This document shows positions 2,041 to 33,270 of a stretch of 55,011 nt of DNA, piece by piece. Each line of letters starts with the position of its first letter. The stretch's first letter is position 1. The stretch comes from Nemertoderma westbladi. Its lineage: Eukaryota > Animalia > Xenacoelomorpha. The translations under genes were made by a program, and so were the position numbers. The DNA lies in assembly GCA_032718475.1 (NCBI GenBank), contig JAUCBJ010008434.1:1-55011 (forward strand), in the 5' to 3' direction. The notes beneath the pieces were generated by a model that was not told the DNA's origin, did not search any database, and saw only the letters and a program-made list of their open reading frames with translations.

Positions 2041-3889
2041 TAGTGGTGGTACTGGTGGTCCCTAAAAGTGGGTCCCTTCAATACATACTGTATGTAGTTC
2101 GATAAGGGGTCCCATATTATACATACAGTACATTCAATAAAAAAATATTTTTCAATATTTTGTATATGTAAATTCTTAAAAGATTTTGTATGATCATTCT
2201 ATGATCGTAGCAGATGTACAATGTATTATGATCAGTGCAGATGAATCAAGCACATAGTATGATCCGTATAGATCTTGGCAGATTCGTAAAGTCGCTAGTC
2301 TAGGGATGGCACAAAATATCAAAATATCTAAAGCTTCATAGAAATGTTTCATTTTCGGTATTTATAGGTTTCCAAAGGACAAAGGTGCTGATTCGATTAC
2401 AAATGTTTTCAAATTCTCTAGTGGCACATAGGTCAGTAGGTGCCACTTTTTATTCTGTATTACTGATTTACCGGTCAGTTCATTAATCACAGAGTTGCAG
2501 ACCGGTCATAGTTTATGACCGTCACCGCCACTAACATAACCGATTAATATCTGTGTATTTTCTGCTGTTATTTTGTATCGTGATATTCATTACATACATA
2601 GTTCTGTGCTATTATCATTTCGGAAGATTAATATTGAGAAACACAAACGCTCTTATTTCCCCGACGGCATCAACGTTGTATTTTTCGGTGCTGTGTGCAA
2701 AATTTGGTGCCAGCAAGAACTTTTGAAAATTAATTCAATAGTTCAATTGATTGTGACAACTCATACTGTAATCCTATCTTACATTTTAGAGGTTTATAAA
2801 TATTTATCTAACAACTATACATCTCAAACTTGTATTTTTTGGAAGTATGGGGTTTCTTGAGTTTATACGGATTTGTGAGGGTTCTGAATTCAATGGAATA
2901 TGTAAAAATTGCATAAGAATTCTGAAACTTGTATTTTTCGGCGGTGGGTGAAAATTTTCAACAACATCGTTTATTGTTTAGGTTAGAAATTGCCGCCGTT
3001 GTAACCTGCTCTTTTCCTTCAATTGGAAGGTAACAACATCGTTTATTGATTTCCACCTTCCCACCCATCTTCCTTCATCGTTTGGGTATAAACTCAGCTG
3101 TATCAGCTGGCAATCAGGGCAATATTGGGCATGTTAGTTAAAGTGTTTCGCCATATTCGGCAGTACAGTACTGTACAGAGGACTGTACCTCTTCCTGCCT
3201 TCCCTTTAGCGTAACAAACAAACAATAAACATTTTAAATGTAATATACTAATAAGTACAGTATCATTATTCAATTAATTTTATATTGACAACTATTAACA
3301 AGAAAGATTACTAAAATATTGCAGCAAAGGCAGAAAGGCTGTATTGTTTTTAATAAATGATTAATGTTTCAACACCAACTAAATCTGCGAAAGTTGTTTA
3401 CATCTGAAACTATCCATCTTTGCTGGGGCAATCACACAACTTTCATACCCGCCATCCTTCATCCTACAGAACTGTATATCGCATTTTTAACCGCAATAAT
3501 TTTTATTGTCCGTTTAAATCCTTTTTTGTCCTTTTTTTTGATTTTTTATGTCCTCCAAAAGTCTAATGTTAGGTTCCATGCTACCGGTTTCTCTACTGCT
3601 GTTCTCTCAGGCTATCAGTACCGGTATTAGTATATATAGCACTATTTTGCTGTATTGTATGTATAGATGTAGGTATAAAGCAGGTATTTCTGTATTTTAG
3701 TACCGGTACCGGCACCGGTACTGCTATAGGCTTACTGTGTAGCCTACCATTTAAATACGGTAATGGTAGGCCTACCGGTTGTGCTAATAAATTTTAAATA
3801 ATTGATAGGCCAAACTGGATTGCAGGATTGTGGAAAATGTGGATTTACCTTTCACATAATTTAGGCCTATTACTGTATTAGTTTTATCG

Positions 3890-4545
3890 TCTCTGTAACC
3901 TGCTCCTTACCCTCAATTAGTTAAATGATCGTTTATTGTTTTGGTTAGAAAATCCCGCCTCTGTAACCTGCCCCTTTCCCTCAATTAGTTAAATGATCGT
4001 TTATTGTTTTGGTTAGAAAATCCCGCCTCTGTAACCTGCTCCTTTCCCTGAATTGGTAAAGTGACCGTTTATTGTTTTGGTTAGAAAGGCCCGCCTCTGT
4101 AACCTGCCCCTTTCCCTCAATTAGTTAAATGATCGTTTATTGTTTTGGTTAGAAAATCCCGCCTCTGTAACCTGCTCCTTTCCCTCAATTAGTTAAGTGA
4201 TCGTTTATTGTTTTGGTTAGAAAATTCCGCCTCTGTAACCTGTCCCTTTCCCTCAATTAGTTAAATGATCGTTTATTGTTTTGGTTAGAAAATCCCGCCT
4301 CTGTAACCTGCTCCTTTCCCTCAATAAGTTAAGTGATCGTTTATTGTTTTGGTTACAAAAATCCCGCCTCTGTAACCTGCTCCTTTCCCTCAATTAGTTA
4401 AGTGATCGTTTATTGTTTTGGTTAGAAAATCCCGTCTCTGTAACCTGCTCCTTTCCCTGATTTGGTAAAGTGACTGTTTATTGTTTTGGTTAGAAAACTC
4501 GGCCTTAACCTGCTCCTTTCCATCAATTGGTAATTGTTTTTGGCT
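3890..4545 (-). repeat. 68-bp tandem repeat, about 9-10 copies (same family as 1290-1615, opposite orientation)
   Basis: Unit TCTGTAACCTGCTCCTTTCCCTCAATTAGTTAAATGATCGTTTATTGTTTTGGTTAGAAAATCCCGCC, period 68. Confidence 0.92.
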
Positions 4546-4844
4546 ATAAAATGAGTGTTTTGCTACGTCATGTGGTAATCGATTATCGACAACAACCTCA
4601 AACTATTAAATATAGAGTCTTTTTACCACAGGCGCATATGGAAATCTATCTCATAGTCTATAAATCATGGAGTCATGCAATGTTTTGGCACAGGCATAGT
4701 GAAAGTATGCCTGTGTGCCGGTATGCCTGAAGGCCTACTGCTATGTCATATGATGATACTGATACCATACTGCCATACGTAACATGGCAACCTGATCCCC
4801 TATTTAACTGTATCTCTTTCTCCTGATTGGTTATAGGATCAGAT

Positions 4845-6507: not shown

Positions 6508-6799
6508 GTCTGTGAGTCATTGAGTTATTATAGTACTCCGTAACCTGGTAACACTAACAAATCCTTGCTCACTGTAGTACCTACGAGCTACGACAGTCTG
6601 ACAGTGCGACTGCAGCTCTGGCTCTGCTACTACAAGACTACCCACCGGTGCCGGTACTGTAAGATAGGATTTGTATCTTTAAGTTATAAATCTATGGTAA
6701 TTCATAATTAATAGGTTCATTAATCAGTTAATATCATTAAATAACGTTTAATATTGCCGTGGCGGCGTTATGATTTCAATTATGGGGGTATATGTATAA

Positions 6800-7812
6800 T
6801 AGGATGGTTTATATTTCAAAAAATTTTTTGAATTTCAGCTGGGTTCATGTTCTATGTTCTATTTTGTTCCAAATTGCATAAAAACACGTTTGATAACTTC
6901 AAAATGTGTTGGAGTTTCCGGGAACTAGATCCACCGTGGCATCATAGTAGCTGCTTGAGCAATCCTGCCATCGCCCGGTCCCACATAAAATGTAATCGTG
7001 GGACTAGTTCTTGTCATTGTTAGGTAAAGAGGTATACATATTGTTATTGTACAAAATTGTACAAAATGTCTGGACTGTGTCAACTCAATATAAGGTCATT
7101 AATTTGTGGACCTAGCCTTGACATTTTGTACAATAACTCGAGAACTAATCACTCAACTCATTTTTAGAGTTTCAACATCCCCTAAATTGATCACTGCAGT
7201 TATGTGTGAATTGTGGATGCCTTGAGATAATTAGAATTATAATTTTTAGTGTATTTGTCAATATTGCATCAAGGCTGCAAGGCTCTAATGTTGACTTGTA
7301 CTGGACTTCACATTTTCTGCAATATCTCAAAAACTATTTGCTTTATGCTTGTTTTGAAGGTGTCTACACCAACTAAATCGGTCATTGTGGTTCTAATGAG
7401 CATAATATCCATGCGGTTGGAATACTAGAAGTTAATCATTACAAAAATGGGGAATATGACTCACTTGCGGCAAGGGCGGGGATCTGGACGTGGACATGTG
7501 AAAGAAATACTAACATTTTCAGTTGGGTTCAACGACAATTCTGTAGCAAATTGTGTAAGAAATTGGAATATGTATACCTTTTTACCTAACAATGAAAATA
7601 ACTAGTCCCACGATTACATTTTATGTGGGACCGGGCGATGGCAGGATTGCTCAAGCAGCTACTATGATGTCACGGTGGGTTGGGTCTAGTTCCCGGAAAC
7701 TTCAACACATTTTGAAGTTATCAAACGTGTTTTTATGCAATTTGGAATAAATTAGAACATAGAACATGAATCCAGCTGAAATTCAACAATTTTTGAAATA
7801 TGAACCACCCTA
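6800..7812. mobile_element. hAT-like MITE with about 210-bp terminal inverted repeats, in the EI24 intron
   Basis: 6800-7009 is the near-exact reverse complement of 7600-7812; 8-bp TSD ATGTATAA (6792-6799, 7813-7820). Confidence 0.88.
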
Positions 7813-7847
7813 ATGTATAATGTTCGGATTATTTTTCAAGTATATGG

Positions 7848-9892
7848 GTCCGTATCTCGGTAATGCTCTGTATCCGTATCCCAGTAATGTTCTGTATCCG
7901 TATCCCAGTAATGCTCTGTATCCGTATCCCAGTAATCTCTGTATCCGTATCCCAGTAATGCTCTGTATCCGTATCTCAGTGTGCTCTGTATCCGTATCCC
8001 AGTAATGCTCTGTATCCGTATCCCAGTAATGCTCTGTATCCGTATCTCAGTAATGCTCTGTATCCGTATCTCAGTAATTCTCTGTATCCGTATCTCAGTA
8101 ATGCTCTGTCTCCATATCCCAGTAATGCCCTGTATCCGTATCTCAGTAATGCTCTGTATCCATATCCCAATAATGCCCTGTATCCGTAAATCAGTAATGC
8201 TCTGTATCCGTATCTCAGTAATGCTCTGTATCCGTATCTCAGTAATGCCCTGTATCCGTATCTCAGTGTGCTCTGTATCCGTATCCCAGTAATGCTCTGT
8301 ATCCGTATCCCAGTAATTCTCTGTATCCGTATCTCAGTAATGCTCTGTATCCATATCCCAGTAATGCCCTGTATCCGTATCTCAGTAATGCTCTGTATCC
8401 ATATCCCAATAATGCCCTGTATCCGTAAATCAGTAATGCTCTGTATCCGTATCTCAGTAATGCTCTGTATCCGTATCCCAGTAATGCTCTGTATCCGTAT
8501 CTCAGTAATGCTCTGTATCCGTATCCCAGTAATGCTCTGTATCCGTATCCCAGTAATGCTCTGTATCCGTATCTCAGTCATGCTCTGTATCCGTATCCCA
8601 GTAATGCTCTGTATCCGTATCCCAGTAATGTTCTGTATCCGTATCCCAGTAATGCTCTGTATCCGTATCCCAGTAATCTCTGTATCCGTAACTCAGTAAT
8701 GCTCTGTATCCGTATCTCAGTAATGTTCTGTATCCGTATCCCAGTAATGCTCTGTATCCGTATCCCAGTAATGCTCTGTATGCGTATCCCAGTAATGTTC
8801 TGTATGCGTATCCCAGTAATGCCCTGTATCCGTATCTCAGTAATGCTCTGTATCCGTATCCCAGTAATGTTCTGTATCCGTATCTCAGTGTGCTCTGTAT
8901 CCGTATCCCAGTAATGCTCTGTATCCGTATCCCAGTAATGCTCTGTATCCGTATCTCAGTAATGCTCTGTATCCGTATCTCAGTAATTCTCTGTATCCGT
9001 ATCTCAGTAATGCTCTGTATCCATATCCCAGTAATGCCCTGTATCCGTATCTCAGTAATGCTCTGTATCCATATCCCAATAATGCCCTGTATCCGTAAAT
9101 CAGTAATAATGCTCTGTATCCGTATCTCAGTAATGCTCTGTATCCGTATCTCAGTAATGCCCTGTATCCGTATCTCAGTGTGCTCTGTATCCGTATCTCA
9201 GTAATGCTCTGTATCCGTATCCCAGTAATGCCCTGTATCCGTATCCCAGTAATGCTCTGTATCCGTATCCCAGTAATGTTCTGTATCCGTATCCCAGTAA
9301 TGCTCTGTATCCGTATCCCAGTAATGCTCTGTATCCGTATCTCAGTAATGCTCTGTATCCGTATCCCAGTAATGCTCTGTATCCGTATCCCAGTAATGCT
9401 CTGTATCCGTATCTCAGTCATGCTCTGTATCCGTATCCCAGTAATGCTCTGTATCCGTATCCCAGTAATGTTCTGTATCCGTATCCCAGTAATGCTCTGT
9501 ATCCGTATCCCAGTAATCTCTGTATCCGTATCTCAGTAATGCTCTGTATCCGTATCTCAGTAATGTTCTGTATCCGTATCCCAGTAATGCTCTGTATCCG
9601 TATCCCAGTAATGCTCTGTATGCGTATCCCAGTAATGTTCTGTATGCGTATCCCAGTAATGCCCTGTATCCGTATCTCAGTAATGCTCTGTATCCGTATC
9701 CCAGTAATGTTCTGTATCCTTATCTCAGTAATGCTCTGTATCCGTATCCCAGTAATGCTATGTATCCGTATCCCAGTAATGCTCTGTATCCGTATCCCAG
9801 TAATGCTCTGTATCCGTATCTCAGTAATGCTCTGTATCCGTATCTCAGTAATGCTCTGTATCCGTATCTCAGTAATGCTTTGTATCTGTATA
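7848..9892 (+). repeat. 24-bp minisatellite (about 85 units) in the EI24 intron
   Basis: Unit CAGTAATGCTCTGTATCCGTATC(C/T); it generates the spurious MLCIRIPV / IRIQSITG ORFs. Confidence 0.97.
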
Positions 9893-10069
9893 TCTGTCTC
9901 CATGGTCTAGTAACTTTGGTTTATTGTTTTGACGTGTCACTGTAACATTCTTCTTTCATTTAATTGATGTTTCGCCGAGATTTGATTTGCGTCAAGTTGC
10001 CCCCCCCCCCCCTCCCTCTGCCACTGGCATACAAATTTTTATTTCAATAACTCTTTATTATTGTTTCAG

Positions 10070-14339: not shown

Positions 14340-16618
14340 TGATACCAACAAACAACACATTCGAAAAGAGTAAGGGGAAGGAAGCTATGGACTTTTCAAT
14401 ACCCTAATGGAACCAAAGCACAACCGGATTACATCCTTATAAACAAAAAGTGGAGAAACAGCATGATCAACTGCGAGGCATACAGCTCGTTCAACCTAAT
14501 TGGTTCGGACCACAGAATTGTGACTGCAGAGAACATACTCAATTTGAGAGCCAGCAAACTCAGGAAAAGCAAGCAAATCAACTATGACTGGGAGAAACTC
14601 AGAACTGACAATGCAGTAAAGGATGCTTACACAGTAGAAGTTCAAAACCGCTTTGAAGCACTTCAGTCAACGGATGAAGACCAATCCACGGATTCAATAT
14701 ACCGGAATATAATAACAGCCCACAAGGAATCAGCTAAGAGGCATATCCCCCAGAAACCCAAACGAAAACAGTATGTTTTATAATTTATTATTGGTGCCAT
14801 GACAAAACTCTGAGGTTACTTGTAAGAGAGAAGATCTTAAGATAGCCTACAAAGTTAAAACCGAACAACCGAAAACATTAACAAGGTTGAGAAAGCTAAG
14901 GACGATCTTAAATTGGCCTACAACATCAGCCAGGAAAAGTACATACAGGATAAAATTGAAGCAATTACAACTGCTCACATACGGCAACAATCAAGACTTA
15001 CCTGGCAAACTGTAAATGAGGTTTCTGGTCGGAAACGTTGTGCAAAGGGGCGCCGCAAAGCCGATAGTCCTGAAGAACGTGTTGGGAAGTGGAAAAATCA
15101 CTTCAGCAACTTGCTTGGGCAGCCACCAAACATCGAGGTCAGCCCTACAAGGAAAATATATTACAATACACTACCTATAGAAACAGGGGACTTCACACCT
15201 GCCGAACTCCAAAGAAGCATTAAAAGCATGTCCAATAATAAAGCGAGTGGATTAGATGAAATCCCAGCGGAGGTATGGAAAACAGGAGTGCTAAATAGAC
15301 CATTATTGAATGTTTGCAACCGGATGTTAAAAGGGGAAAAGCCACCACCAATTTGGACTAAAGGTCAACTAAAGCCTCTCCCCAAGAAAGGAGACCTCGG
15401 TAACTATCGTGGGATCTGTCTGCTTGTGGTAGCTGCCAAAATATACAATAAAATGATTCTATATAGGATTAGGCCTCACACATAGAGAAACTACTGCGTA
15501 AGAGCCAAAACGGATTTCGACCAAGTAGATCAACAATAGCTCAGATACTTGCACTACGGAGACTGATTGAAGGAATTAATTCAACGAATCTCCCCGCAGT
15601 CATGACTTTTGTGGACTTCAAGAAGGCATTCGACTCCATCCATAGAGGCAAAATGCTTGAAATCCTAAGAGCTTATGGAATACCAGAATTAATTGTTGCT
15701 GGCATTGGATTGTTATATTGTGACACAGAAGCGCAGGTACTCTCACCAGATGGTGAAACTGAGTTTTTCTCAATCCTGGCTTGGGTACTGCAAGGTGACA
15801 CATTAGCACCATTACTATTTGTAATTGTGCTGGATTACGCAATGAGGACGGCCACAAAGGGTGAAGACCTGGGATTCACACTTCAAGAACGCAGAAGTAG
15901 TAGATATCCGGCAACTACAGTCACGGACACCGACTTTGCGGATGACATCGCCCTGCTCTCTAATACGCTAGCAGATGCACAGCTTCTACTAAATAAAGTG
16001 GAGAGGGCTGCTAACGAGGTTGGATTGCATATAAATGCTACCAAGACCGAATTCATGACCTTTAATGTTCATGGAAACTTGACAACCATTGATAATAATC
16101 AACTAAGGAAGGTCGATGACTTCCAGTACCTTGGATCATGGATAGAGAGTAGCAAAAAGGACATAGAAGTTAGGAAAGCAAAGGCTTGGGTAGCTCTATT
16201 AAAAATGAATACCATCTGGAAATCAAATCTCTCCAGGCACCTGAAGACTAAGTTCTTTCGAGCCACAGTGGAAAGTTTACTTTTATATGGGGGTGAGACC
16301 TGGACACTCACTAAATCACTTGATCAACGAATTGATGGTTGCTACACAAGACTACTAAGGGCAGCCCTAAACATCAGCTGGAGACAAACGCCGTGCTTTA
16401 TGGTACAATACCACCTGTATCAACCAACCTCCGTGAACGCAGATTAAGATTCAGTGGGCACTACTGGCGAAGTAAAGACGAGGTCATAACAGATCTACAG
16501 TATGTACTTTTCTGGCAACCAACTCATGGAAAGCTTAGTCGTGGACGACCGACCATAACATATATAGATCAACTTGAAAGGGATACTGAACTTGGGAGAA
16601 ACGAAATTGCGACAACTA
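14340..16618 (+). mobile_element. 5'-truncated RTE-clade non-LTR retrotransposon (APE C-terminus and RT), degenerate, left part
   Basis: WTFQYPNG..DYILINKKW, GSDHR, KASGLDEIPAE, PKKGDLGNYRGI, FVDFKKAFDSI, VLQGDTLAP, DFADDIALL; several stops and frameshifts; interrupted by the LTR element. Confidence 0.92.
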
Positions 16619-17760
16619 TGTAAAAGCTTTTGCGTCATTAACCGGTTATTTTCCCTTAAAGTACTCTGTAGTTGGTTTACCAGGCATAAAAAGGCCGTGT
16701 CCTTGCTGTACTGGTGTTTTAGAGGACATAAAAGTCATTTCTTCTGTATTTGTACTTTAGAGGACATAATCCGCAATCTCGTGACGCGATAAGCTAGATA
16801 CTCTTGAAAACAGTGTCGCTACCATGACGACGGCTAGCAGCTGATATTGCCACGTCGACATTTCTTTGTTTCTTTGTTCTCTCGTTGTTCGGTTGACCAA
16901 TCAGAGCGTTTTTTGTCTCTGTGTTGGAGGTGGATACAGAACTCAGTAGTTCAGTGTTATGTTTTTGCCCAGAGCCTAAGAACACCGGCTTTTGGCACCT
17001 CCGTGTTTCAGTCTTTAGTCTTACATTAGTAGGCTTAATTATAGAACGTATATCTGTTATCTACTCACTTATTCACTCACTATCCATAAATTACTAATAT
17101 TACTGCTTTTACTGTCGGTTATTCATTATATTGGTTGATGAAATATTATATCGGAATACTGATCAATAGTCAGATACCCCACCTTCTTGATATACTAAAG
17201 GTTAGAGAGACCGGTTACAAATAAACGATTGCGACCTATGTTAAGTGGTTTGAAGTGAATCTAATGCTATTTCATATGCCCGACATAAATTATATGTTGC
17301 TCTCTTTATACGTGACCAAATTTAGTGAAGGTCGGCAGATTAGTGTGCAGTATTGTGCAGCATTGTGTATGAGTGTAACTGATAACAAAGCATCTCCTAA
17401 AGAATGCGCCATATACGTGAATCTATAGCCTTTTCGTTGTGTCTAGTTTAAGTCATAACTCTGTTTACATATTTAGAGCGCCACGTCCTAAAGGAACTGT
17501 TAATATTTCCCGAAAGTGAATAATATTTGTCAGAGATTATATATTACGATCAGTCGAATAATACAGTAGGCTTACACCATCAATCATTAAGCTCCGAACT
17601 CAGTCTCCCGGGTATATCCAACGGGTGAATGATTGCGCATAGACTGGCTTCGGCTAATGTAGTGTATCAAATACTCGTCATAGGCTAAAGACTATCTATC
17701 ATCCAAAAGACATTCTAATTTTGGCAGGTTAAACTGTCAAAGGTCTTAAAAGCGCAAACA
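16619..17760 (+). repeat. 5' LTR of the BEL/Pao element
   Basis: Direct repeat of 32050-33191; only one difference seen by eye (A17757 vs G33188); CCAAT box near 16897, AATAAA near 17219. Confidence 0.97.
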
Positions 17761-18041
17761 ATAACAGATATTGCTTCTGGATTGCGGTGTAAGCAATCTA
17801 GTCGAAAGTACCGGTCGACCGGTAACCAGTAGGCCTGACTGCCTGATCATCCGGACCGGTACTTACTTACAGTACAGGTACAGCAGTATTATTCGATTGT
17901 GGTATTGTATACCGGTAGGCTGTTTAAGAGATTAGGGACTGTACACCCCTTGTTTCTTTTGGAGCTTACTTATTTCTGTCAGTTTTATTTATTTGTAGGC
18001 CAGTATTGAGCAGAAGGCGTGTAAGCCTGCTCAGATTGTAC

Positions 18042-18614
18042 AGATAATTTGTAGGCTTGACTGTTGGCTAACTGTTGATTAGGTCTGAACGGATTGCAGT
18101 GCATGTAGAGTGTATGTCCGATAAAGAACGGTTAGGAAGTAGGGGCAGCCATAGCTGTAAGGTAAACCCCCATCTAAAGAATAAGTCGTACTACTGGGTT
18201 AGAACGCATACTACTTAACCATTTCGGAGTCTGCATGTCCTGTGGTTTATTTAGGCTTGATAGGAGTCCGCCAGCGTTTGGTCTGTACTTTGTTTGTGTA
18301 GTCTGTACGGGTAGCGTATAATTTTATTTAGATAATTTGTAGGCTGGATAGTTGTCTGGCTGCTGTTGGGTTTGAGGAAATTTCGGTGTGTGTAAAGCAT
18401 CTGTCCGATAAAGAACGGTTAGGAAGTAGGGGCAGCCATAGCTGTAAGGTAAATCCCCATCTAAAGAATAAGTCGTACTACTGGGTTAGAACGCATACTA
18501 CTTAACCATTTCGGAGTCTGCATATACCGTAGTTTGTTTAGGCTTGATAGTAGTCTGTCAGTATTTGGTCTGCATTTTGTTTGAATAGTCTGTACGCGTA
18601 GCGTAATATTTATT
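18042..18614 (+). ncRNA. Tandemly duplicated (~287-bp unit) structured RNA element in the retrotransposon leader
   Basis: A 122-nt core differs at one base between copies (18115-18236, 18402-18523); the flanks diverge in sequence but pair with each other as a long G-U-rich stem in both copies. Confidence 0.7.
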
Positions 18615-19945
18615 ATTCAGAGTTTATGCGATTATTCGCAACATTCATATCCCCAAGTTTATTCCTACAGTAATTGTGTTTGTTATACATACCGTTATAG
18701 TTAAACTAACCCCGGTACTACATCAGGGCTGCTCGGCGTAGGTAAAGACTGGAGATTTTGTGCTTTGGTCACTCCGGCAGATACCGTGGTTCTTTTAGCT
18801 GTTCAAGTATTTTTAACTACTAATTATTTGTCGTACAAGTACTTGTACCTAATTTAGGGTTTAGTGTACAGTGCTTTCCGAAAGCAATTAGTGTGTAGGC
18901 AGTGTATTTGTGTTGTAAAGTGGTTAATAGGCACGTTGGTTCTGGTAGACCGCGGTAATTAACTTCTAGGTAGGGACACTCCGTGATACATAACGTAGTA
19001 CCTATAGCGATACGGTTATAGGTCGTCAGGCGGTGGTATTTTCCTATCTGGACAACGCAATATATTTACTACTACTTATTATTTTCAAATACCGTAGTAT
19101 CCTGTCTGTTATAATAACCAGAATTCTAACCCTTTGTTAGGCTGGTTTGTAGACTTCCTGTAAAATTACCCTAAAAATTTCGTACGTAATATTTTGTTGT
19201 GTTTAATTAGAGATTTAATCTCACCCGTATCGTAAGTAATTTGTAGTATTAAGTAACTTAGGTAAATTAGAATTATCTGTTTTAGTGTCCCATAAGTAGC
19301 ACTTCACTGAGAGCGCACAGCTTTTGTGTAGTGACTTCCCCCAGAAATAATAACATTTATTTCAAATATTGACAAAACCCATTTTAAACGGGTATATAAA
19401 TATTATAAATCAACTCAAACGATTTATAAATAGTAGGCCTGCCATACAACAACTAGGTCTCAATATCAGTTGGACTACTGCTTAAATAACGGTAATAAAG
19501 TAAGTTAAAGTAACCAAGTAACCCTTAAAATTCAGAAATTCAATTATTCTAAAATAATTGACATACCGGTATTTACAATAGGCTTATTATATTTATTTCT
19601 ATAAATTTTAGGTTGAAATCATACCGGTATTCTGTAATTAATTCTAGTCTGTAATTATACTTATATATATACACTATAAGTGTAAACTGCATACCGGTAT
19701 TCATGATAGGCCTATTATATATTTATATATATTTGTGCTAAAATTACCTACCGGTATTCTGTGATAAACTAGTCTGTAATAATACTTATATATACTATAA
19801 GCATACCGGTATACTAATATATTATATATCACGCTACACTGAGTAGCAGTATCGGTAATTAATTACTAGGCTAGCAGTTAACACGGAATTACTAGACTTG
19901 CTTAGACTGTAATATAGCAGTAGACATTCAACTGTGTAAACAAAC

Positions 19946-22900
19946 ATGTCTGATACTAAGCAGAACCTGTCAGACAGTTTATTAGATGTAACTATCTGCG
20001 ACTCAGATAGAGGTGTAGAACCGTCTAGTCCTAAGTTCAGTTCACCTCCCACTGTGAGGAAGGTCATCCCTCCAGTAGTAATAACAGAACCTAGGCTGGT
20101 CCAACATCGTAGGTCTATCATAGGCACTCAAGCTCAGGTCAAGCGGGACCAAGAAGCAGCGGAACAGCAACAACCCGCGAGCCAATAACTTATTTCTCAG
20201 CGGCCCAACAGCTCCAGTAGTGAGGATACTGTAGAGCTGACACCCGAGCGCGGAGCAAAGATGACGGATGCGGTTTATTCGGATCCCCTTCTCATCCTTC
20301 CTGCAGCCGTACTCACTAGGTTATTGATCGCGGTGGAAGAACACCAGATCGATTGGGTGAGAAGTAAACGATCGACTAAAGATAGTTATGCGGGATACAC
20401 AAAGGAAGAACTGAAATCTATGGTCGAGTCGCAATGGAACTTCCCCGGACCCGGACTCCCGTTTGATTTATCAGAAGCTGCCTGGGAAGACATACACCGG
20501 ATGGGAGTAGCCAAGGAAACCATCGATCCAGCTGTGTGGAAGAGGTCCGCAGCCGGATACGCACAGGGATTCTTCAGCTCTATGGAGCGAGTAAAAGAAC
20601 AACTGTTTCAACAACCTCAAGGACCTCAAGAGCAGGGACAACTGCTTTATCAAGTTAGAGAAAGAATTCTGCGAATTAGGCTAATCTTATCAGCCTTTGA
20701 GGAGGCTTCTAAAAGAAGACAAGACACGTCGTTGCAAGTTGCCGTAAAGACTTGGTTTCAACGGGTGAGTCGCCAGGTTCAAGGAACGGCTCAGTGGAAA
20801 GCTCAGCTGGAGGAGCGCTCAACCCATGGAGAATCAACAGACGCTACTTTTTCCCAAGTGGAAAGTGAAGCGACGGCAGAGAAACCGCATAAGAGGGATG
20901 CCATTGACATCTATCTTCTCAGACTATCAGCGTTTTTTAGGAGATGAAGAGTTGAGGAGAAGGTTAGATGGACTTAGCCCTAATAGCGAAGGAACTCAGC
21001 GTGTGTTGGATGCCATCGATGTGGAAATGAGGGCTGCGAACCAGGCTAAATTTGATGAACGCCTCCGCATCACTAGAGTCCAAGAAGAACAAGTAAAGAA
21101 AAAACGTATAGAAGACAGAAAGGCAGCGGCAGTAGCAGCAGCAGTGGCATCGGCAGAAGCTGAAAGAAAAGCGGCCGAAGCGGAAAGAAAGGCGGCAGCG
21201 GCAGAGGCAGAAGTGGAGAGAAAAGCGGCCGAAGCGGAAAGAAAGGTGGCAGCGGCAGAGGCAGAAGCGGGGAGAAAAGCGGCCGAAGCGGAAAGAAAGG
21301 CGGCAGCGGCAGAGGCAGAAGCGGGGAGAAAAGCGGCCGAAGCGGAAAGAAAGGCGGCAGAGGCAGTAGCAGAAGCAGAACGGAGAGCGGCTGAAGAAAC
21401 CACCCAACTAGAATTGGAAAACATTCAGGAGAATCAAGACTGCATAAATAAACAGTTAACAGCTAGTAATATGCAGATGATGAATCGATCTACTCCCAAA
21501 AGACATACATCATCTGAGGAAGGCGACACCACCGATACTGAAGGCAAAGGAAATAGATCTCACCTAAGCAGACGTAAAAGAACATCCCACCGTCAGAAAT
21601 TGCCTGATTTGCCTCCGGCTGTTAGAAGGCAACTAAATAACACCAACTTAGGTAGTACAGAACCCACAGACCAAATAATTACAATAGAAAGACTCCCTAC
21701 TATAGTAGATGAGCCTGAAATAATTAGGCCTGTTCCCGAAGCCACCCTTTCGGTGGTAGAGAAACCTGTACTCCCTGAACCTACCTCGCAATTCCCTTTG
21801 CACAGCACTAAGCTACCTGTGCCCAGCAGAACAGCCCATGAGACAGTTCATGCCCTGGACTCCGAGCGAAATATTCATGATTTGTCGCCCGTTGTCCCTC
21901 GTCCGCCCGCTACAACGTTGGCGAATCCCGCTTCGGCGGTTGAATGGGTGGATGAGAGACGACGGGGGATGGATCTCCTGCTCGGACAGATGCAGGAGAC
22001 CGTTCAGCAATTCAAGGGCACAGTAAGGGAAAGTAGATTAGAGTTGCAAGAAGTGCAGCAAAGTATCGCGCTAGAACGCGATAAATTAGTAAATACACAA
22101 AAGGGTATACCAACACCCCCCGTAACAATGTGTCAACCTGTTAGGTCTGAAGTATCTCATGCGCAAGGTGTGGAGCCTACACGCATCTATACTGCTAGCG
22201 AAGTAGAAACTCCTATAGTGAACCCTATTAAGGGTAATTATAGACCTGTTGATAATGATATTCCCTATAGACCTGATCATAATCCAAGAAATTTATATAC
22301 CGATAACTCGATATTAAATAACACGATGGCCCAAGAAAGTTTTACGCGTCAAATGGCTAGAACCGAAGCCCGGCAAGCGGTAAAGGTGGGAGAGATAGTC
22401 AAGTTCAATGGAGATGAGATGAAATGGTTACCTTTTAATGAATATTATAAAGATAACATACAGAACTCTGTACTATCTAATGGAGAGAAACTTAGATTCC
22501 TCATCGAGTGCTTGGAAGGATCTCCCAAGTTAATGGCGTTAAAGTTTATTGGACATCCAGACGGATTAAGACAAGTTTGGGATACACTAAACATCAGGTA
22601 TGGTAATAGGAATAACATAGCTGGGTATTTGTATGCAAAGTTAGTAGCGCCCCGAAAGTTTATTAGCAGCGGGATTATAGAGTTTTCCGATGAGATTCAG
22701 GAGATCTGCAGACAATTAGATTGGCTAGGTAAGTCTCATGAGTATCAGAGTGCTATGGTTATTAGAGCAGTGGCTTCTACTTTACCGAAGGGTGGAGTAG
22801 GTACACGCTGGGATAAGAAAGTGTTATATATGATGGAACAACAACGACAAGACCCTACCATGGCTGATCTCATGTCATTCCTAGATGGAGAAGTGAAATT

Positions 22901-25900
22901 ACAGCTCCTGAAACTGTCCAGAGAGAAGACACCGGAAAACAAGGTAAGTGAAAAACCCGTCGCTAGGAGAAAGGTAACACCAGTGTGTTATACAGATGAT
23001 GGCGAAAGCCAGACTTCTCAAGGAGAAGATAGCGGGAAAGACACTGACAGATCTTATTACGTAAATAAAATGCCTAAAGATCAGGTAAGTAAATTTAAGT
23101 CTCGAACAAATGACAGGAGAGAACAGGTAAGAAAAACTCCTCCTACGTCTCCCAAGAGAATTCAGGTGAGAAAGCCCGAAGAAAGGACAAGTGTACACAA
23201 TGTTACTCAGAGTAAGGTAAGTAACATCAAACCGAAATGTGCGCTATGTGATGGGACCCATCGCTTAAATATGTGTGATGAATTTCTAAAGAAATCATTA
23301 ACTGAGAGACGTGAAGTCATGTGGGATAAGCGGTTGTGTTATAATTGCCTCAGACATGGACACCAACGGCGAACCTGTTACTCTGACACAAGATGTGCCA
23401 AGTGTGGTGCGAAACATCATATCTTGTTACACACTGAATTCGAGCGAAATAGTCCGAGTCAGGTAAGTGATTCCGAACTACATGTCCAATTCAGTGATGT
23501 GAACGACACTGATCAATCTGAGATGGAAGGATTCTATACGGACGAGTTCTCCGACGAAAACGAATCCTGTTACACGATAAATACCACAGTGTATCGAGCA
23601 CTCACGTATGAAAAGGATACGGACAGCGACCTTACCCTAACTACTTCTGATCAACAACCATTTTGGAAAGCGCCAACTTCCAATGTAGGGATTAGAGAAT
23701 TTCCTGTGGTACAGGTAAGGGTCCACGGACCAAAAAGGAGTTATGTAGTGAACGCCCTCCTTGACTCCGGTAGTACAGGAACATTCATCGACAAAGAGCT
23801 AGCCGAGGACATATTTGCTGGACAACCCAAGTTCCGAACTAAGCTAAACATGTCAGGAATTATGCAAGTTTGGAAATCCACAGTAACAGCGGATTATTAT
23901 GTAGGTGCGTTGTCCACCCCCCAGGACGAACTAGGAGAACGTAGCATAAGGTCAGTGAAAATGGTGGCTATAAAGAATTTCGCTACTACTCAAGCAGACC
24001 TTTATAATTGGGACGAGGATGAGAGCATTCAATATCTTAAGATACCTCGATTCCAGACAGATTATCCTGGAGTGCAAATACTCATCGGCCAAAATGCACA
24101 TGAGGCGCTCGAGACATTGGAGAAACGGCCTGCTCAACCGCAGCCACTACAGACCTATGCGGTAAGAACTAGAGTAGGTTGGTACTTTACTGGCCCTTCC
24201 CGTAGAACTCTCATGGAAAGATTACCGAAAGATCAGGTACATCAAGTGCGAGAATGGGAAGTTGAGAACAGTGAGTTCGACGATCCAACTGAGGGAACTC
24301 CATACTCCTCAGACAATGACGATATACATCAACTCTTCGATGAGGAGAATGCCATCGATCTCCTCAAGGAAAGCGAGACTTGGCAAAATCAAGTGAACTT
24401 ATGTCAACTCCTTCTCCCATCCGAGCGAGACGACTATAACGACGAGCTTAATGACGTCATTGAACGTTATAATGCCAAGACTCGGGATGAACACGCCGTG
24501 AGATTCTTTACTCAAGAGGTCGTAGAGCCCAACTCCTACGATAAGGCCCTATCGGTGGAGGAAGAAAGAGCCAAGCAGATCCAAGCGACAACTACTCGTT
24601 TTCTTAAAGATCAAGGTAGATATGAGATCGGTCTTCCTTTCCGAAAGCGAGTACCAAAGTTCATTAACAACAGACCTTTGGCAGAGAAAAGAATTGCTCA
24701 ACTACATCGACGCCTTACGGCAAATTCTTCAGCTAAAGAAATGTATCAAACGCAGTTGAAGAAGTTTATTAGCAAGGGATATGCGGAGCTAGTACCGGAA
24801 GAAACACCCATAACTGAGAGAACGTATTATTTAACTCACCATTACATTCCCAAACCCGGTAAACCCCATGAAGTACGAGTGGTGTTTGACGGTTCCGCCC
24901 TTTATATGGGCCAATCTCTTAATTCTGAATTGTTACCCGGACCCAACTTACTCCAATCCTTGTTGGGAATACTATTAAGATTAAGACAATATTCCATTGC
25001 TTTCGCCTCAGATATAGAAGGCATGTTCTTACAAGTCAAAGCGCTGGATAGGAATCGAGATAGCCTACGATTTTTGTGGTGGCCTGAAGGAGACCTCAAT
25101 AAGAAACCGGTGGAGTACTGGATGACCATCCAAGCTTTTGGGATAATCTCGAGCCCTTCAAACGCCTGTTCCGTGGTGCGCACCACTGCGGATGACAACC
25201 GAGACGCCTTCTCTAAAGAAGTGATCGACAATATCAAACGAGACATCTACATGGACGATAATCTGAAGTCCCTTCCATCAGTCGAAGAAGCCATTGAGGT
25301 CGCTAAAGGAACGGTAGAATGCTTAAGGAAAGGTGGATTTCGATTAACTAAATTCACCAGCAACTCCCGTGAGTTTCTGGAGTCGATCCCGGTAGAAGAT
25401 CGAGGAGCAAAAGACCTAGATCTAATAAAGGATGATCTCCCAGAAACTAAGACCCTTGGTTTGAAATGGGACACAGAAAGAGATATCCTGTTTTTCCAAC
25501 TAAAACAGCGAGATAATCCAGTTCGGACTAAACGGATATGTTTAAGTATCCTGAGCACTTATTTCGATCCATTGGGATTTATTAGCCCAGTTATATTGAT
25601 TGCTCGGAGTTTAGTACAACAAATGTGGCTTGAAAACCACTCATGGGACGATCCACTTAAGGGAGAATTATTAAAGAAGTGGATGAAATGGGAAGATTCT
25701 CTACCAGCCATCGAAAACTTCATAATTTCCCATTCATATTTTGGTCATGTTCTCCCTACGTATTCATATCAACTCCATGTGTTTGGAGACGCCAGCGATA
25801 TGGGAATAGGTATAGTAGCCTACCTAAGGGTGGAAACTCCGGACGGAATCAAAGTTGCCTTGGTTACCTCTAAGGCATTGATAAACAACAAGTTGAAAGT

Positions 25901-28132
25901 TCCTCGAGCAGAGTTAAAAGCGGCTCTATACACTACAGCCATCGGCCGGAATGTAACAGAACAGATCGACTATCCCCTGGAGAAAACTGTCTATTGGACC
26001 GACGCTTTACTCGTGTTGGAGTATATAACCAATGAAGTCTGTCAGTTCAGCGTCTTCGTTACCAACAGAGTAGCTATTATACTCAGTCGCACGACGATGG
26101 ATCAATGGAGACATTGCCCCGGAACGATTAATCCAGCAGACATCGCTTCCAGGGGAGCAACTCCACAAGAACTGGTAGATACTCCAGACTGGTTAGGTGG
26201 ACCCGACTTCCTCTACCAAGAAGAAGAAGAATGGCTTCCTCATCTTACTACAGCAGAAATTAGACAGGCCAAGGGAGCGGAGAAAGTCAAGCCTAAAACT
26301 CAGGCGAGTAAATCGAAGTTATTCAAACCCCCAGTAGATCTGTCTGTACTACATACTTCCGGAGACGACGCTTTGGATCAGAAACCCACAGCCACAAATA
26401 AACCCATTGTGGAAATCCGTGATAAGGATTGAAAATCTGGTATACCAGACGTCTCGTAAGGACTCTCACCTCTTCTGCAGAGAGCGATGCATCACTACAG
26501 TTCCTGGAATCGGCTTTGTAAGGCCGTTACATATTTAAAGAGATGTTTTCACCATCACTACTCTGGGATGAAAACAAAGGGTGATACCGCTCCAATCACA
26601 TCAGTGCAGGTCCATGTTATTAAAGACCTTCCTAAATATAAGGTACCCGACAAGTTTCTGAAGGAGAAGATCAGTTATCAGGAGCATGAAGAAACCAACA
26701 AACAGATGCTGAGACTCTTACAATGCTATGAAGATTCCGATAAGTATTTCCTGTTGTTGAGAAATCCACAGATGCGCTTAAGGGATCGTTTCTCTAGCAC
26801 AATGATAGATGGGTTGATACGTGTTGGAGGAAGGTTAACGAATGCCCCATTATCCTTTGATACTAAGTTCCCCATACTCATTAGAAATCTTGAAATACAA
26901 GTCAAGATGATTGTAGATGTTCATAGCAAACTTTATCATGCTGGTAGAGAACGAGTTCTTAGCGAAATTCGAACTCGCTATTATTTTTATAAACCCCGTA
27001 GAGCTCTGAACCAAGTTCTTAGGAACTGTATACCCTGTAGGAGAGCATTCAGTAGGCCTTTAACACAGAGAGAGGCAGAATTACCTAGGGAACGAGTAAG
27101 CTTTTATGAACCACCCTTTACTAATACCGGTGTGGATTTATTTGGCCCTATTGAAGTATATCGTGCTAGGACTATAGTCAAGAGATGGTGTGTAATCTTT
27201 GTTTGTATGACTTGTAGAGCCATCCATCTCGATATGGTGAACGATTTATCTACCAACAGCTTTCTATTAAGCTTACGACGACAAATGCTCGCTTTGGCAC
27301 TAGTAACACGATGAGATCTGATAAGGGAACCAACTTCATTGGTGCCAACAATGAAATCAAAGCTTACGTCAAAGATTGGAACCAAAGACAGGTGGACGAC
27401 CAACTACGAGTAACAGCGTCTAGTTGGACCTTCAACGCCGCCGACGCCCCTTGGTGGGGAGGAAGTTGGGAGAGATTAATAAGAAGTGTGAAGACGGCAT
27501 TTCATTTCATAGTGCCTTGCCGCGCTTATCTCACCGACGAACTTTTGCGGACGTTAATGGAAGAAATCGCCGCCTATCTCAACGAGAGACCGCTTATGCC
27601 AGTCTCATCGAGTCCCGATTCCCTGGAAGCGCTAACACCTGCGCACTTCCTACTGAAGAAACCTGTAGCCATGCTCCCACAATCGGAAATCACAGACGGA
27701 GACGAATACTGCCGACAAACTTGGCAACTCATGCAGTTGTTATCCCGTCGTTTCGCTGACCATTTCGAAAAACATTATCTGCCCACGCTACAACTTCGAA
27801 CTAAGTGGTTTGCGCAGCAAGAAAACGTCAGCGCTGGAGACATGGTGCTTATTGTGGATGTGGATCTTCCACGTAAGCGGTGGCAGACAGGTCGTATAAT
27901 CGAGACGCACATCTCGGATGACGGTTTGGTGCGATCGGTAGAACTCGTCGTCATGCGACGTAACTTCTAGAAACCGGGAATTGTCTTCGAGACGCAGCAG
28001 CTCAATCGCCCAGTGGGACGTTTATGTTTACTGGAAAGAGACAGAGAACTCTCCGGAAACTATGGGAGACAAGATACTCTTCCCACGACCACCTCCCTAA
28101 TCCAACAAACATCTAGGGACTCCCTAACTTAA
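19946..28132 (+). pseudogene. BEL/Pao gag-pol polyprotein, disrupted
   Basis: Ala/Glu/Lys coiled-coil repeats (21150-21390), DUF1759-like KFNGDEMKWLPF, three Zn knuckles, protease ALLDSGS, RT YMDD, RNase H HVFGDAS/PRAEL, integrase GVDLFGP, SDKGTNF, WERLIRSVK, terminal RPVGRLCLLE. In-frame stops at 20186, 26430 and 27968; frame changes near 20830-20947 and near 27300. Confidence 0.93.
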
Positions 28133-29763
28133 CAACGGCTGGAGTGGGTGTGTGACCATATTACTTTATATTTGTATTTGTTTTATTTTTATATTTATGT
28201 ATGTATTATTATGTAATTTTATTTTAATCGTTTTATTTAATTTTATTTAGTAGTATGGTATTTTAGAGATTATTTAGTAGATTAGTGCAATATATATTCG
28301 CGTTTATTATTTAATTACGTATATTATATATTTAGTGCGACGGCGAGAAATAATTCTTTTTCTCTTTCCTTACTGCCCGTATTACATTATCAATACGTGA
28401 CTACAGTAAGATGAAATCTTCGTACTTATTAAAGTACAATAAAGCCACTACTATATTCAAGTATTATTGGTAGGCAGAGTATTAGGAATGCAAAGTTCAG
28501 ATCCTCGTGTCTCGGCTAAACCAAGCTCTGGGTAGACCTTGGAAACGACTTGCCTCTTCACACTGACATTGCTTCGTGCGATATTGCTCTCATAAAACCG
28601 TATATTAAATAATACATATAGTAGCGTGATGTCCCTTTAACAGTAGCGTATAACGCAAAATAAATCTGTTAAACCCTTTGACCATCTGTAATTCTAGTCG
28701 ATTAAGATATCGCGGCACCCACCGATATACTTGAAAGACAAATTTCTAGAATCAATGGTTAACGTCCCCAGACAAGTTCTGGAATAAACTGGTGCCCATC
28801 CTAAATATTAATTATTAATATTTACAAAAATCTGTCAAATATCAGATCCTTAAAATTCTAGTCGATTAAGATATCGTAGCACTTACCGATATTCTTAAAA
28901 GGACAAAATTTCTAGAATCAAGGATCCCAGTCCCCAGACACGTTCTGGAATAAAATTGTGTCTATTTAACATTAAATAATAAAATTTACGGGAATAAATT
29001 TAAATTCAGATATTTCAATGAATTTAATAAATTGTCATTTTATACAATTTATAACATTCCCAAAATTCCATTAATTAATAGATCATGGGAGCGGAGATTC
29101 ACTATATTAAGTGTATTTGTGTGCGAGAATCTCCAATGTATAGTCAATAGCCGATAAAATTCATAGAATCATGTATAAAGGGGATATTGACCATTAAAGA
29201 ATTACTATTAAATAGCATCCCAGATCTGTATGCATGAGAATTACCCTAATTCTACCGCTAGCTTTCCATAATGTCACCATGGCAACAACCATGCTAGAAT
29301 TAGAAGTGAGTTAAAAGAACAATAACAGGCTTGCCCATTGAATAGCATACGGAATAAATAGCACACCGCTAGTATCTAAAGATACATAATAACAACGTGA
29401 CATTCTGGAAGGCACTTGACTAACGGACAAATGACCCGAATGTGTGATAGAATGTGTACAATTTGTGACAGTTACGTGGAATTTGTGCGTTTGTAGGTGA
29501 ATGTTACTACTAAGGTGTGTTTACAGTAGCGAGTCGCAATTGTGAAAGTAACCCTAACTCTCCAGTAAGAACCCGAAGTATATCTAAGCCTTTGGGACGG
29601 ACGGTGGAGTGGCTCGTGCTGGTTGTTGTAGTCGTTGTGCAGCTACGACGTTGGCGATAGGCACATCGGCGAAAGTACACCAGCGCTGAGGATCTTGCAC
29701 TGTCCGGGGGCAGAGAGGGGTAGGCAGCGACGCCCGCTCGCCTAAATATAAACTCATTATAAT

Positions 29764-31971
29764 ATGGATAAACTCATAGCAGATATGACTGAGTTGATAG
29801 AAGATGATCTTGGCATCAGGGAGCGATATACTCTACCTTTACAAGCGTTTGTCGATAGCTTGATATGCGGCGACGCTGGTCCAACTACTACGGAGGATGA
29901 TGGTCATTATATCGAACCGCCAATGTCCCCGGAGCAACTTACGCGTGAATTGGACTATAGAAAGTTCACCGCTCGCTATACGCATCGTAATGGTACGTAT
30001 ATGGACTTCTTAACTACCGGCCACCCTATCGATTTACCCGATACGGACGATGTGGATACCGAAAGGGAAATGGTTTTATTTAAATATCATACCCAACGGA
30101 ATCGGAATGATAAGCCAAGAATAGAACACGAGAACTCTATTCGAAACAGACTCGAAAGAGAAGACGTTGAAGAGCCGGATAAACGCAACGACTTCAACGA
30201 TTATCTGGAATTCTTGAGAGAAACATACCTCAATATTGCCAGTCAACAAAATCTCGAAACTCGATATCCTCAAGGTATACATCATGATCCTATGATAGAA
30301 CTCAAACGACTCTATTTCACTATGATGTATCTTACCGCCGATCGACCGCTACCTGTTGTCCCAGATAGCTTCGAACAGATGGAGGAATATTGTAAAACTG
30401 GAGAACGATCACCCGCGTTTCCTCTGCAGGACATGCGTCTTTGGTATTACTGTGACGAATGCCCTAGACCCAATCAGCAAACGGAAAGACATAAACATCC
30501 GCGGAGACGTTGCGCTAAACACAGTTTTACACGATATACTTACGGGAGTTTCGAGCGAAACCTGTTCGACGTGTCCCCTGCGGTCGCTCGACTCAAGCGA
30601 TCCTTGAACAAACCGATGATCAGAGTTCCGGAATACTCGGTCAGACCTCCGCATTCCTCAGTTAGACCTCAAACTCTTGACCCTAATAGTATCACGGATC
30701 CTCCCGAACTGTACTCACTGTTCAAAGATCTAGTGTTACCCGAACAATTGATCTGTGGCACTCCGGTAGTAGGCTCACGAGACATTCGCCAACCCTACCT
30801 AGCTGGATTGGGACGTGGTCATCTAATATCACCGTTTAACCCATACAACCGTCCCGGCTTCACCTCTATCCAACCCGTTACGGAAGTCGAAGAGAGCGTC
30901 GTACGAAATGCATTAGACGCTATTCGGCAGAAAATCGGAAAAGGAACGTACGATTGTTTGGAGAAGCGTAAATTGCAGCAACAAGTCCAAGCGGTGAAGG
31001 AATTAGCTTTACCCCAGTTCGATAGAGAAATACAAAATCTCGAGGAGGACATCGAACGTGGACGAACCTACTCTTTGCAAGAGTTTCTAGATGAGCGTCT
31101 ACAACAACAAGCGGAGGAGAATCAGCTCGAGGAGAGACATATAGAACTGGATGAGAGAGAAGAAGCGGCTTTAGCTCAACCCGAAGCACAAATCCTTATG
31201 ACGGATCTCTACTCTAAAACCATTCTTCATCCCTCGATGGTTCCCCATTTCGGAGACAAACTTTTTGCGACGGCACAACCCCAACCGGTTGATATCAACT
31301 TAAGATCTCGAGATCTTATCGCCGACGCTCCTCTGTTGCAGCGTCCGCCCATCGAACCCGCTCGTGTCGATGGTATACTCGTTGAACCTCCGGACAATAG
31401 AGCAGATCTTGTCCGTCGCATGGTACACGATGTAAACATACGCGCTAGACCTTTACCGGACTCGTTTTATGGGATCAAAGATCACCCTTATTACGTCAAT
31501 CCTAACGATATTACTTCATACCATTTGATCAATTATATCCGTCAAGACCCTGAGTATGGCGATTTATTTATCAACTCGCACCCTGAGTTACAGGAAGTAT
31601 CTCGACGGCCCTACGAATATCGAGCCCGAGAACGCGAGCTGGAAAGAACTATTAAACCAAGGAAGTTTCTCACCACTCACGGTCCGCCTACCGCCATTGC
31701 CCAGACAACCCGTCAAGGACCCGTAGGAGCTGCTGTCCTGAGGCGCGCCCTAAAGGCTGTTAGACCTCGCTCCACGGAAGTTGATATCGATCAACCAGGT
31801 ACCTCGACCGGCGGATACACCGATCGCAATCCGAAACCTTCTGATGCAATTGTATTGCACCCTTCACCCAGAAGTTACAGCCCTCCTAGTAAAGTGGCTC
31901 GCCCCAAAGAGAAAAGGACTCTTGCTAGCCTCAAAAAACTGCGTAAACGCCGTCCGCGTAAGAAAGACTAA
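29764..31971 (+). CDS. Extra ORF (735 aa) of the BEL element, unknown function
   Basis: Uninterrupted 2.2-kb ORF between pol and the 3' LTR; CDEC...HKH...CAKH putative Zn site, acidic coiled coil, basic C-terminus KKLRKRRPRKKD; no signal peptide or TM segment visible. Confidence 0.85.
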   Translation: MDKLIADMTELIEDDLGIRERYTLPLQAFVDSLICGDAGPTTTEDDGHYIEPPMSPEQLTRELDYRKFTARYTHRNGTYMDFLTTGHPIDLPDTDDVDTEREMVLFKYHTQRNRNDKPRIEHENSIRNRLEREDVEEPDKRNDFNDYLEFLRETYLNIASQQNLETRYPQGIHHDPMIELKRLYFTMMYLTADRPLPVVPDSFEQMEEYCKTGERSPAFPLQDMRLWYYCDECPRPNQQTERHKHPRRRCAKHSFTRYTYGSFERNLFDVSPAVARLKRSLNKPMIRVPEYSVRPPHSSVRPQTLDPNSITDPPELYSLFKDLVLPEQLICGTPVVGSRDIRQPYLAGLGRGHLISPFNPYNRPGFTSIQPVTEVEESVVRNALDAIRQKIGKGTYDCLEKRKLQQQVQAVKELALPQFDREIQNLEEDIERGRTYSLQEFLDERLQQQAEENQLEERHIELDEREEAALAQPEAQILMTDLYSKTILHPSMVPHFGDKLFATAQPQPVDINLRSRDLIADAPLLQRPPIEPARVDGILVEPPDNRADLVRRMVHDVNIRARPLPDSFYGIKDHPYYVNPNDITSYHLINYIRQDPEYGDLFINSHPELQEVSRRPYEYRARERELERTIKPRKFLTTHGPPTAIAQTTRQGPVGAAVLRRALKAVRPRSTEVDIDQPGTSTGGYTDRNPKPSDAIVLHPSPRSYSPPSKVARPKEKRTLASLKKLRKRRPRKKD

Positions 31972-32049
31972 CTGTTTAGAGTATTTTTATATTTTAGAAA
32001 CTGTGATTTGTTATATTTTATAGACTTAAATCCCATTTTCTGGGAGCGG

Positions 32050-33191
32050 TGTAAAAGCTTTTGCGTCATTAACCGGTTATTTTCCCTTAAAGTACTCTGT
32101 AGTTGGTTTACCAGGCATAAAAAGGCCGTGTCCTTGCTGTACTGGTGTTTTAGAGGACATAAAAGTCATTTCTTCTGTATTTGTACTTTAGAGGACATAA
32201 TCCGCAATCTCGTGACGCGATAAGCTAGATACTCTTGAAAACAGTGTCGCTACCATGACGACGGCTAGCAGCTGATATTGCCACGTCGACATTTCTTTGT
32301 TTCTTTGTTCTCTCGTTGTTCGGTTGACCAATCAGAGCGTTTTTTGTCTCTGTGTTGGAGGTGGATACAGAACTCAGTAGTTCAGTGTTATGTTTTTGCC
32401 CAGAGCCTAAGAACACCGGCTTTTGGCACCTCCGTGTTTCAGTCTTTAGTCTTACATTAGTAGGCTTAATTATAGAACGTATATCTGTTATCTACTCACT
32501 TATTCACTCACTATCCATAAATTACTAATATTACTGCTTTTACTGTCGGTTATTCATTATATTGGTTGATGAAATATTATATCGGAATACTGATCAATAG
32601 TCAGATACCCCACCTTCTTGATATACTAAAGGTTAGAGAGACCGGTTACAAATAAACGATTGCGACCTATGTTAAGTGGTTTGAAGTGAATCTAATGCTA
32701 TTTCATATGCCCGACATAAATTATATGTTGCTCTCTTTATACGTGACCAAATTTAGTGAAGGTCGGCAGATTAGTGTGCAGTATTGTGCAGCATTGTGTA
32801 TGAGTGTAACTGATAACAAAGCATCTCCTAAAGAATGCGCCATATACGTGAATCTATAGCCTTTTCGTTGTGTCTAGTTTAAGTCATAACTCTGTTTACA
32901 TATTTAGAGCGCCACGTCCTAAAGGAACTGTTAATATTTCCCGAAAGTGAATAATATTTGTCAGAGATTATATATTACGATCAGTCGAATAATACAGTAG
33001 GCTTACACCATCAATCATTAAGCTCCGAACTCAGTCTCCCGGGTATATCCAACGGGTGAATGATTGCGCATAGACTGGCTTCGGCTAATGTAGTGTATCA
33101 AATACTCGTCATAGGCTAAAGACTATCTATCATCCAAAAGACATTCTAATTTTGGCAGGTTAAACTGTCAAAGGTCTTAAAAGCGCAGACA
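32050..33191 (+). repeat. 3' LTR of the BEL/Pao element
   Basis: Copy of 16619-17760, preceded by the short purine tract GGGAGCGG. Confidence 0.97.
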
Positions 33192-33270
33192 AACTATGGA
33201 GAATCGGGAAGCCTGGAAGGATCTCATTTCCACTGTCCGAGTTCGCTCCACCTAGTAGTAGTAGTAGTAA
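33192..33270 (+). mobile_element. 3' end of the interrupted RTE element
   Basis: Continues the RTE frame MENREAWKDLISTVRVRST* and ends in a (TAG)n tail. Confidence 0.88.

Follow-up and report, generated by a model that had tools for sequence, protein, structure and literature searches.

A 55,011-nt stretch of a Nemertoderma westbladi contig (the window) was analysed. It contains a BEL/Pao LTR element of 16.6 kb (16619-33191), whose features are listed in Table 1. A single base distinguishes the two LTRs, and the AACTA duplication lies on either side of the element, so the insertion is young. In contigs of the public runs X1 and X5, the left flank was joined directly to the right flank (16614-16620), which would mean either a polymorphic insertion or a target that is a repeat in its own right.

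The gag-pol ORF encodes DUF1759, two CCHC-type knuckles, a protease motif, a reverse transcriptase (RT) with YMDD, and Peptidase_A17. Pfam domains followed the BEL/Pao order (DUF1759, Peptidase_A17, Integrase_H2C2, DUF5641), and PF05380 was present in all top RT homologues. The TG...CA LTRs, the 5-bp target-site duplication and the polypurine tract are likewise of the BEL/Pao type. No chromodomain was matched by Pfam in the element, and its pol was not of the Ty3/gypsy chromovirus kind, to which the Tf1/sushi group belongs. Named BEL/Pao reference elements (Sinbad/Sailor, Suzu and Tas clades) were absent from the RT matches. Pol is interrupted in this copy both before and within the integrase. 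For the 739-aa ORF in the env position, Pfam gave no family and an Atlas search no usable match. The leader (17772-20188) is unusually long (2.4 kb), with a direct repeat (18042-18621, spaced 287 bp, 85%) and a second repeat pair near 19562-19829.

Table 1 Features of the BEL/Pao element and of the related LTRs in the window.
Feature	Position	Strand	Remarks
Target-site duplication AACTA, 5' copy	16614-16618	+	Other copy at 33192-33196
5' LTR, TGT...ACA	16619-17760	+	1142 bp; one mismatch to the 3' LTR, at 17757
CCAAT-box-like motif	16897-16902	+	164 nt before the 3' end of the candidate primer; kept in the solo LTR
Pyrimidine tract and TTTAG, acceptor-like	17005-17019	+	Kept in all three LTR subfamilies
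Candidate self-primer ATATCTGTTAT	17050-17060	+	Contiguous, no intron within
Putative primer-binding site ATAACAGATAT	17761-17771	+	Offset 0 from the LTR end; without TGG
ORF upstream of and overlapping gag-pol	20189-20947	+	252 aa, stop to stop; without Pfam match
Gag-pol ORF	20769-26432	+	1887 aa; stop precedes the integrase
Integrase region	26460-27970	+	Two overlapping frames (Integrase_H2C2; DUF5641)
Extra ORF between pol and polypurine tract/3' LTR, env position	29752-31971	+	739 aa
Polypurine tract GGGAGCGG	32042-32049	+	
3' LTR	32050-33191	+	1142 bp; the 11-mer recurs at 32481-32491
Solo LTR, sister subfamily	49132-50339	+	75% identical; target-site duplication GTTTC
Third LTR, more distant	54411-55011	+	Ends at the window edge

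A sequence-only reading of the window had claimed that the 5' LTR is followed by no TGG, and that the sequence found there has an exact complement in the LTR itself. Both points were confirmed (17761-17771 and 17050-17060). ATATCTGTTAT is the reverse complement of ATAACAGATAT, and the window contains it at just two places, 17050 and 32481, one in each LTR. Dinucleotide shuffling of the LTR produced the 11-mer in 35 of 20,000 cases, and in 81 of 20,000 when offsets of 0-4 were allowed. These values (2e-3 to 4e-3) show that the earlier chance estimate of ~1e-3 was about right. Among 14,279 internal 11-mers, four were complementary to the LTR, one of them the primer-binding site (PBS). The 11-bp core duplex had a predicted energy of -10.5 kcal/mol. 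The primer lies 700 nt from the PBS, compared with 62-203 nt in the relatives described below.

Pairing had also been proposed to resume in a second helix, TAGAA with TTCTG. This helix is present, but did not exceed chance when the flanks were shuffled around the fixed 11-nt core (p = 0.40). A duplex extended beyond the core was rejected altogether, as p was below 0.05 in only 1 of 16 elements. An element-encoded tRNA primer was rejected as well: the 55,011 nt of the window held no tRNA-like gene, and the element had no Rfam match at the gathering score.

Two sister LTR subfamilies occur in the window. Their 11-mers, as quoted in the sequence-only reading, were located at 49596 (solo LTR) and 54851 (third LTR), with one and three mismatches, respectively, to the window PBS. 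The PBSs of both subfamilies fall outside the window. Leaving the LTR start aside, identity to the third LTR peaked over the last 60 nt up to the primer 3' end. Two blocks ending at 17061 were identical at 22 of ~38 and 20 of ~25 positions, and the next block at 5 of ~26. Joints in the contigs of three public runs began at 17061-17063. The identity drop and the joints hint weakly at a constraint that may end at the primer 3' end.

Public DNA runs contained the window element in many variants. The PBS junction was covered by 168 contigs in X1, 56 in X3, 2 in X5 and 0 in X4; the variant letters of these contigs are unlisted though some pieces differ at 6-9 positions, which makes them uninformative on covariation. 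In a wider contig set, none of the 40 variant rows listed, out of 258, fell on the two 11-mers.

Metagenomes were scanned with an RT alignment for distant relatives. Of 526 loci that were confirmed, the 80 best, at 37-43% identity, were retained and grouped into 58 families. Scans of IMG/VR with a single RT and with the alignment gave no relative. For scoring, 16 of the 58 families were used, those with a 5' LTR end set by a repeat boundary and thus independent of pairing; for L018, the LTR of L032, a partner 96.6% identical to it, was used. Scoring left out L078 and further apparent repeats, which were internal duplications or had no readable LTR ends. Each family was scored by the greatest length over which the sequence behind the LTR (offset 0-4) matched the LTR perfectly, whether contiguously or across an intron; the offset range and the strict splice rule were fixed after the sequences had been inspected.

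Pairing of 10-15 nt with the own LTR was found in 15 of the 16 families, and always began 0-4 nt from the LTR end. Non-cognate pairs reached at least 10 nt in 5 of 272 cases under the strict splice rule, and in 11 of 272 when any GT-AG was accepted; two of these matches came from the pair L005/L010, which has a common primer. The summed cognate score was 189, compared with 145 for the best permutation, and none of 100,000 permutations reached the observed value. Among the 16 self-pairing elements, the window's included, there were 15 distinct 10-nt PBSs. In the sisters L067 and L075, primer and PBS were altered together. The window PBS begins with AT, and a GT or AT start was seen in 15 of 16 elements. 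The exception to self-pairing was L076, which matched over 4 nt only and has, behind a 5-nt spacer, a site of the TGG type. In L018 (56-75), the post-LTR sequence begins with TGG, yet pairs over 14 nt with the family's own predicted splice junction; a TGG by itself can mislead PBS annotation.

The relatives are not all independent (L005/L010), metagenome assemblies may merge copies, and many loci share assembly-name prefixes, so that the number of hosts may be small. In an RT tree (59 rows, 22 same-family duplicates dropped, no outgroup), the window element stood on a long branch (2.2), and its best RT identity was 44%. Its tree distance was 3.14 to the tRNA-type L076 and 2.94 to L018, the nearest splice-type family. 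The window RT is thus about equally far from both types, and the relatives argue by analogy.

The relatives differed in how the primer is laid out. The match was contiguous in 5 of the 15 self-pairing families, whereas in the other 10 it existed only across a canonical LTR intron. These predicted GT-AG introns were 71-186 nt long, and the downstream exon contributed 5-8 nt of the match. Scored contiguously, the split families reached only 6-9 nt, and the unspliced cores paired more weakly by 3-13 kcal/mol. Under the permissive rule (any GT-AG), which is the fairer test of the two, the same ten junctions still scored best. Donors followed GTRNG in all ten split families, a motif that fits 34 of the 473 GTs in those LTRs, and the acceptors were pyrimidine-rich YAG. 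Seven further families, for which only the LTR start is known, gave a splice-type match at an LTR-like end in five cases and no clear match in L045 and L071; in L002, also of this set, the splice match ranked second. Between L044 and L025, and between L048 and L055, the junction flanks and the GT/AG were kept while the intron interior had diverged.

The sister families L054, with a split primer, and L060, with a contiguous one (read by eye), have the last seven primer bases in common and, like L067 and L075, change primer and PBS together. In the RT tree (59 rows, no outgroup), contiguous families were scattered among split ones, a pattern consistent with repeated intron loss. In L074, a single contig has two LTR variants (1-326 and 6694-7103), one showing an intron acceptor at the primer and one lacking it; this is possibly a snapshot of intron loss, or else a merged assembly.

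A splice-built primer was thus predicted in 10 of the 16 scored relatives, and not in the window element, whose primer is contiguous. An intron splitting the latter was sought and rejected, as the best match stayed contiguous under both splice rules. The acceptor-like tract at 17005-17019 lies ~30 nt before the primer, and no GTRNG donor was found upstream of it. Speculatively, the tract might serve as an acceptor in trans-splicing, or be a relic.

The position of the primer in the transcript was assessed from promoter and poly(A) motifs. The CCAAT-box-like motif of the window LTR suggests a start site upstream of the primer. A TATA box was visible in 3 of the 15 relatives, 135-178 nt upstream of the primer. 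Both motifs suggest that the primer is not the first 11 nt of the RNA. In 12 of the 16 elements, a poly(A) signal lay no more than 100 nt after the primer, compared with 1.7 expected. The window element is one of the four without such a signal; its only AATAAA lies at +159 and is not kept in the solo LTR. Because poly(A) hexamers follow the primer and TATA or CCAAT motifs lie upstream of it, the primer most likely sits inside R, at neither end of the RNA. Two sources for it had been offered in the sequence-only reading. A cut 5' fragment is favoured here, and the RNA 3' end is unlikely, given the signal downstream of the primer in most elements.

We propose, at a probability of about three in four, that the window element self-primes from a cut 5' RNA fragment, in the manner of Tf1 but with neither a terminal primer nor a pretzel. 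Transcription would start some tens to ~150 nt upstream of the primer, which would place the primer inside R. The leader would fold back, pairing the PBS with the R segment. A cut, probably in the 5' copy and just behind 17060, would free a 3'-OH; the nuclease would be RNase H, by analogy to Tf1. The freed end would read AT in the window element and AC in most relatives. RT would then copy U5 and the remaining R and transfer to the 3' R, and the sequence upstream of the cut, any intron included, would be templated by the 3' copy. In retroviruses, the PBS is re-copied from the primer in each cycle. If the same holds here, this would be the cause of the tight covariation of primer and PBS.

In the split relatives, the primer is predicted to arise only after splicing of the LTR intron in its middle. 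Only a spliced 5' copy would be competent, while the unspliced 3' R would stay intact for strand transfer, and the intron would be inherited. For an intron in mid-primer to persist, the 5' copy would have to be spliced and used, and the 3' copy left without splicing. The unspliced 3' copy would also be kept from competing for the PBS. In contiguous forms such as the window element, the 3' copy may have been spliced too, or contiguity may be ancestral. We lean slightly towards a wider reading for a broad branch of marine-animal BEL/Pao elements. A spliceosome-built self-primer would have replaced the tRNA, splicing of the 5' copy would license reverse transcription and protect the 3' repeat, and contiguous elements like that of the window would be derivatives by intron loss. 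The splice-built primer is predicted from the relatives, not from the window copy.

Self-priming might instead start from the 3' R copy, with the 3' end of the RNA, or of a second packaged RNA, cut or trimmed to the edge of the duplex. As 12 of the 16 elements have a poly(A) signal downstream of the primer, the latter would be present at both RNA ends, and the contiguous primer of the window element, for which the poly(A) site was not located, would be competent at both. However, the intron was present in the scored 3' LTR copy of all ten split families. Spliced 3'-end priming on the same RNA would be expected to purge it in each cycle, and such priming would remove the R overlap required for strand transfer. 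We regard a primer from the 3' copy as unlikely.

The pairing could also be real but structural, serving packaging, dimerisation or a translation switch, while another primer is used. The 11-bp core is energetically modest, and what is known from the sequence is the pairing, the cut site and the primer being predictions. Against a structural role, the pairing always sets in 0-4 nt past the LTR end, at the very place from which minus-strand synthesis has to start; it is absent (4 nt) in L076, the sole family with a TGG site, and no other primer site is evident. A purely structural duplex appears quite improbable. Priming of the window element by a small RNA, for instance a fragment of a host tRNA, with a coincidental LTR match, is very improbable. 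In its favour, priming by half-tRNAs is known to occur without TGG in Ty1/copia (excerpts of PMC6317226), and the window element, on its long branch, stands near the tRNA-type L076. Against it, the chance of such a match is 0.2-0.4%, the same feature recurs in 15 of 16 relatives, and neither a tRNA-like gene in the window nor an Rfam match at the gathering score in the element was found.

Self-priming as proposed here has its closest model in Tf1, Tf2 and Tj1 of the Tf1/sushi group, which are self-primed Ty3/gypsy chromoviruses according to excerpts of three reports (PMC7175516, PMC4600332, bioRxiv 10.1101/2022.12.06.519325). As excerpted there, the Tf1 primer consists of the RNA's first 11 bases and is released by RNase H (PMC7175516), and priming takes place within a three-duplex pretzel (bioRxiv 10.1101/2022.12.06.519325). 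Like these elements as so described, the window element has no tRNA site, and a PBS of ~11 nt adjoins its 5' LTR. In both, the PBS is complementary to an LTR segment of the same element whose 3' end faces U5, and a cut would be needed. Unlike them, the window element belongs to BEL/Pao, its primer is predicted to lie within R, and the primer of most relatives is split by a predicted spliceosomal intron. Flanking ungapped Watson-Crick helices of the pretzel kind were found at p<0.05 in 0 of 16 elements, bulged or G-U-rich helices being outside the scoring. The earlier suggestion of self-priming gained support from the covariation in 15 of 16 families. The exact Tf1 geometry probably does not hold, the primer being predicted inside R and no pretzel helices having been found.

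Two other BEL/Pao elements bear on this comparison, namely Achilles and Cer7 of C. elegans, of which the latter has been proposed to supply its own element-encoded tRNA-like primer. In contrast to Cer7, no tRNA-like structure was found in the window element, and the complement of its PBS lies only in the LTRs. Achilles has a tRNA-Tyr PBS, according to an excerpt of its description (PMC4580426). It shares superfamily and domain order with the window element, and L076 likewise has a TGG-type site, whereas in the window element and 15 of the 16 scored relatives this place is taken by a self-complementary site. For the plant elements Tcn1 (gypsy) and TAR, Houba and Osr-1 (copia), self-priming was predicted from PBS-LTR complementarity (PMC6317226, in excerpt). 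That prediction is of the same kind as ours, and places the trait outside Tf1/sushi; however, those are plant gypsy and copia elements, and the excerpted text describes no intron-split primer.

In the full-text literature, with subscription journals and Repbase reports outside its scope, no description of self-priming or of a splice-built primer in BEL/Pao was found. Terms for priming or tRNA were absent from the searched parts of three BEL/Pao papers (PMC554778, PMC3118150, PMC6238403). If true, the proposal would extend tRNA-independent priming to a third LTR superfamily, with a primer made by pre-mRNA splicing, a step absent from the literature searched. Splicing would then be a switch for transposition. 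It would also explain why PBS finders that use tRNA or contiguous DNA complementarity are blind to such elements, which should moreover escape control by tRNA supply or by 3' tRNA fragments.

Elsewhere in the window, a LINE RT (14859-16447) lies next to the BEL/Pao element, and another LINE (50844-54410), whose ORF1 is Cys-rich and whose ORF2 encodes an endonuclease-RT, is followed by the third LTR. An intronless OGFOD2 open frame (42663-43676) shares ~50% identity with homologues of every animal group; it is possibly a retrogene, or the host lineage is fast-evolving. Tandem arrays were found with a unit of 24 bp (7825-9910, ~80 copies), 68 bp (1222-1629 and 3820-4568) and 16 bp (34115-34326).
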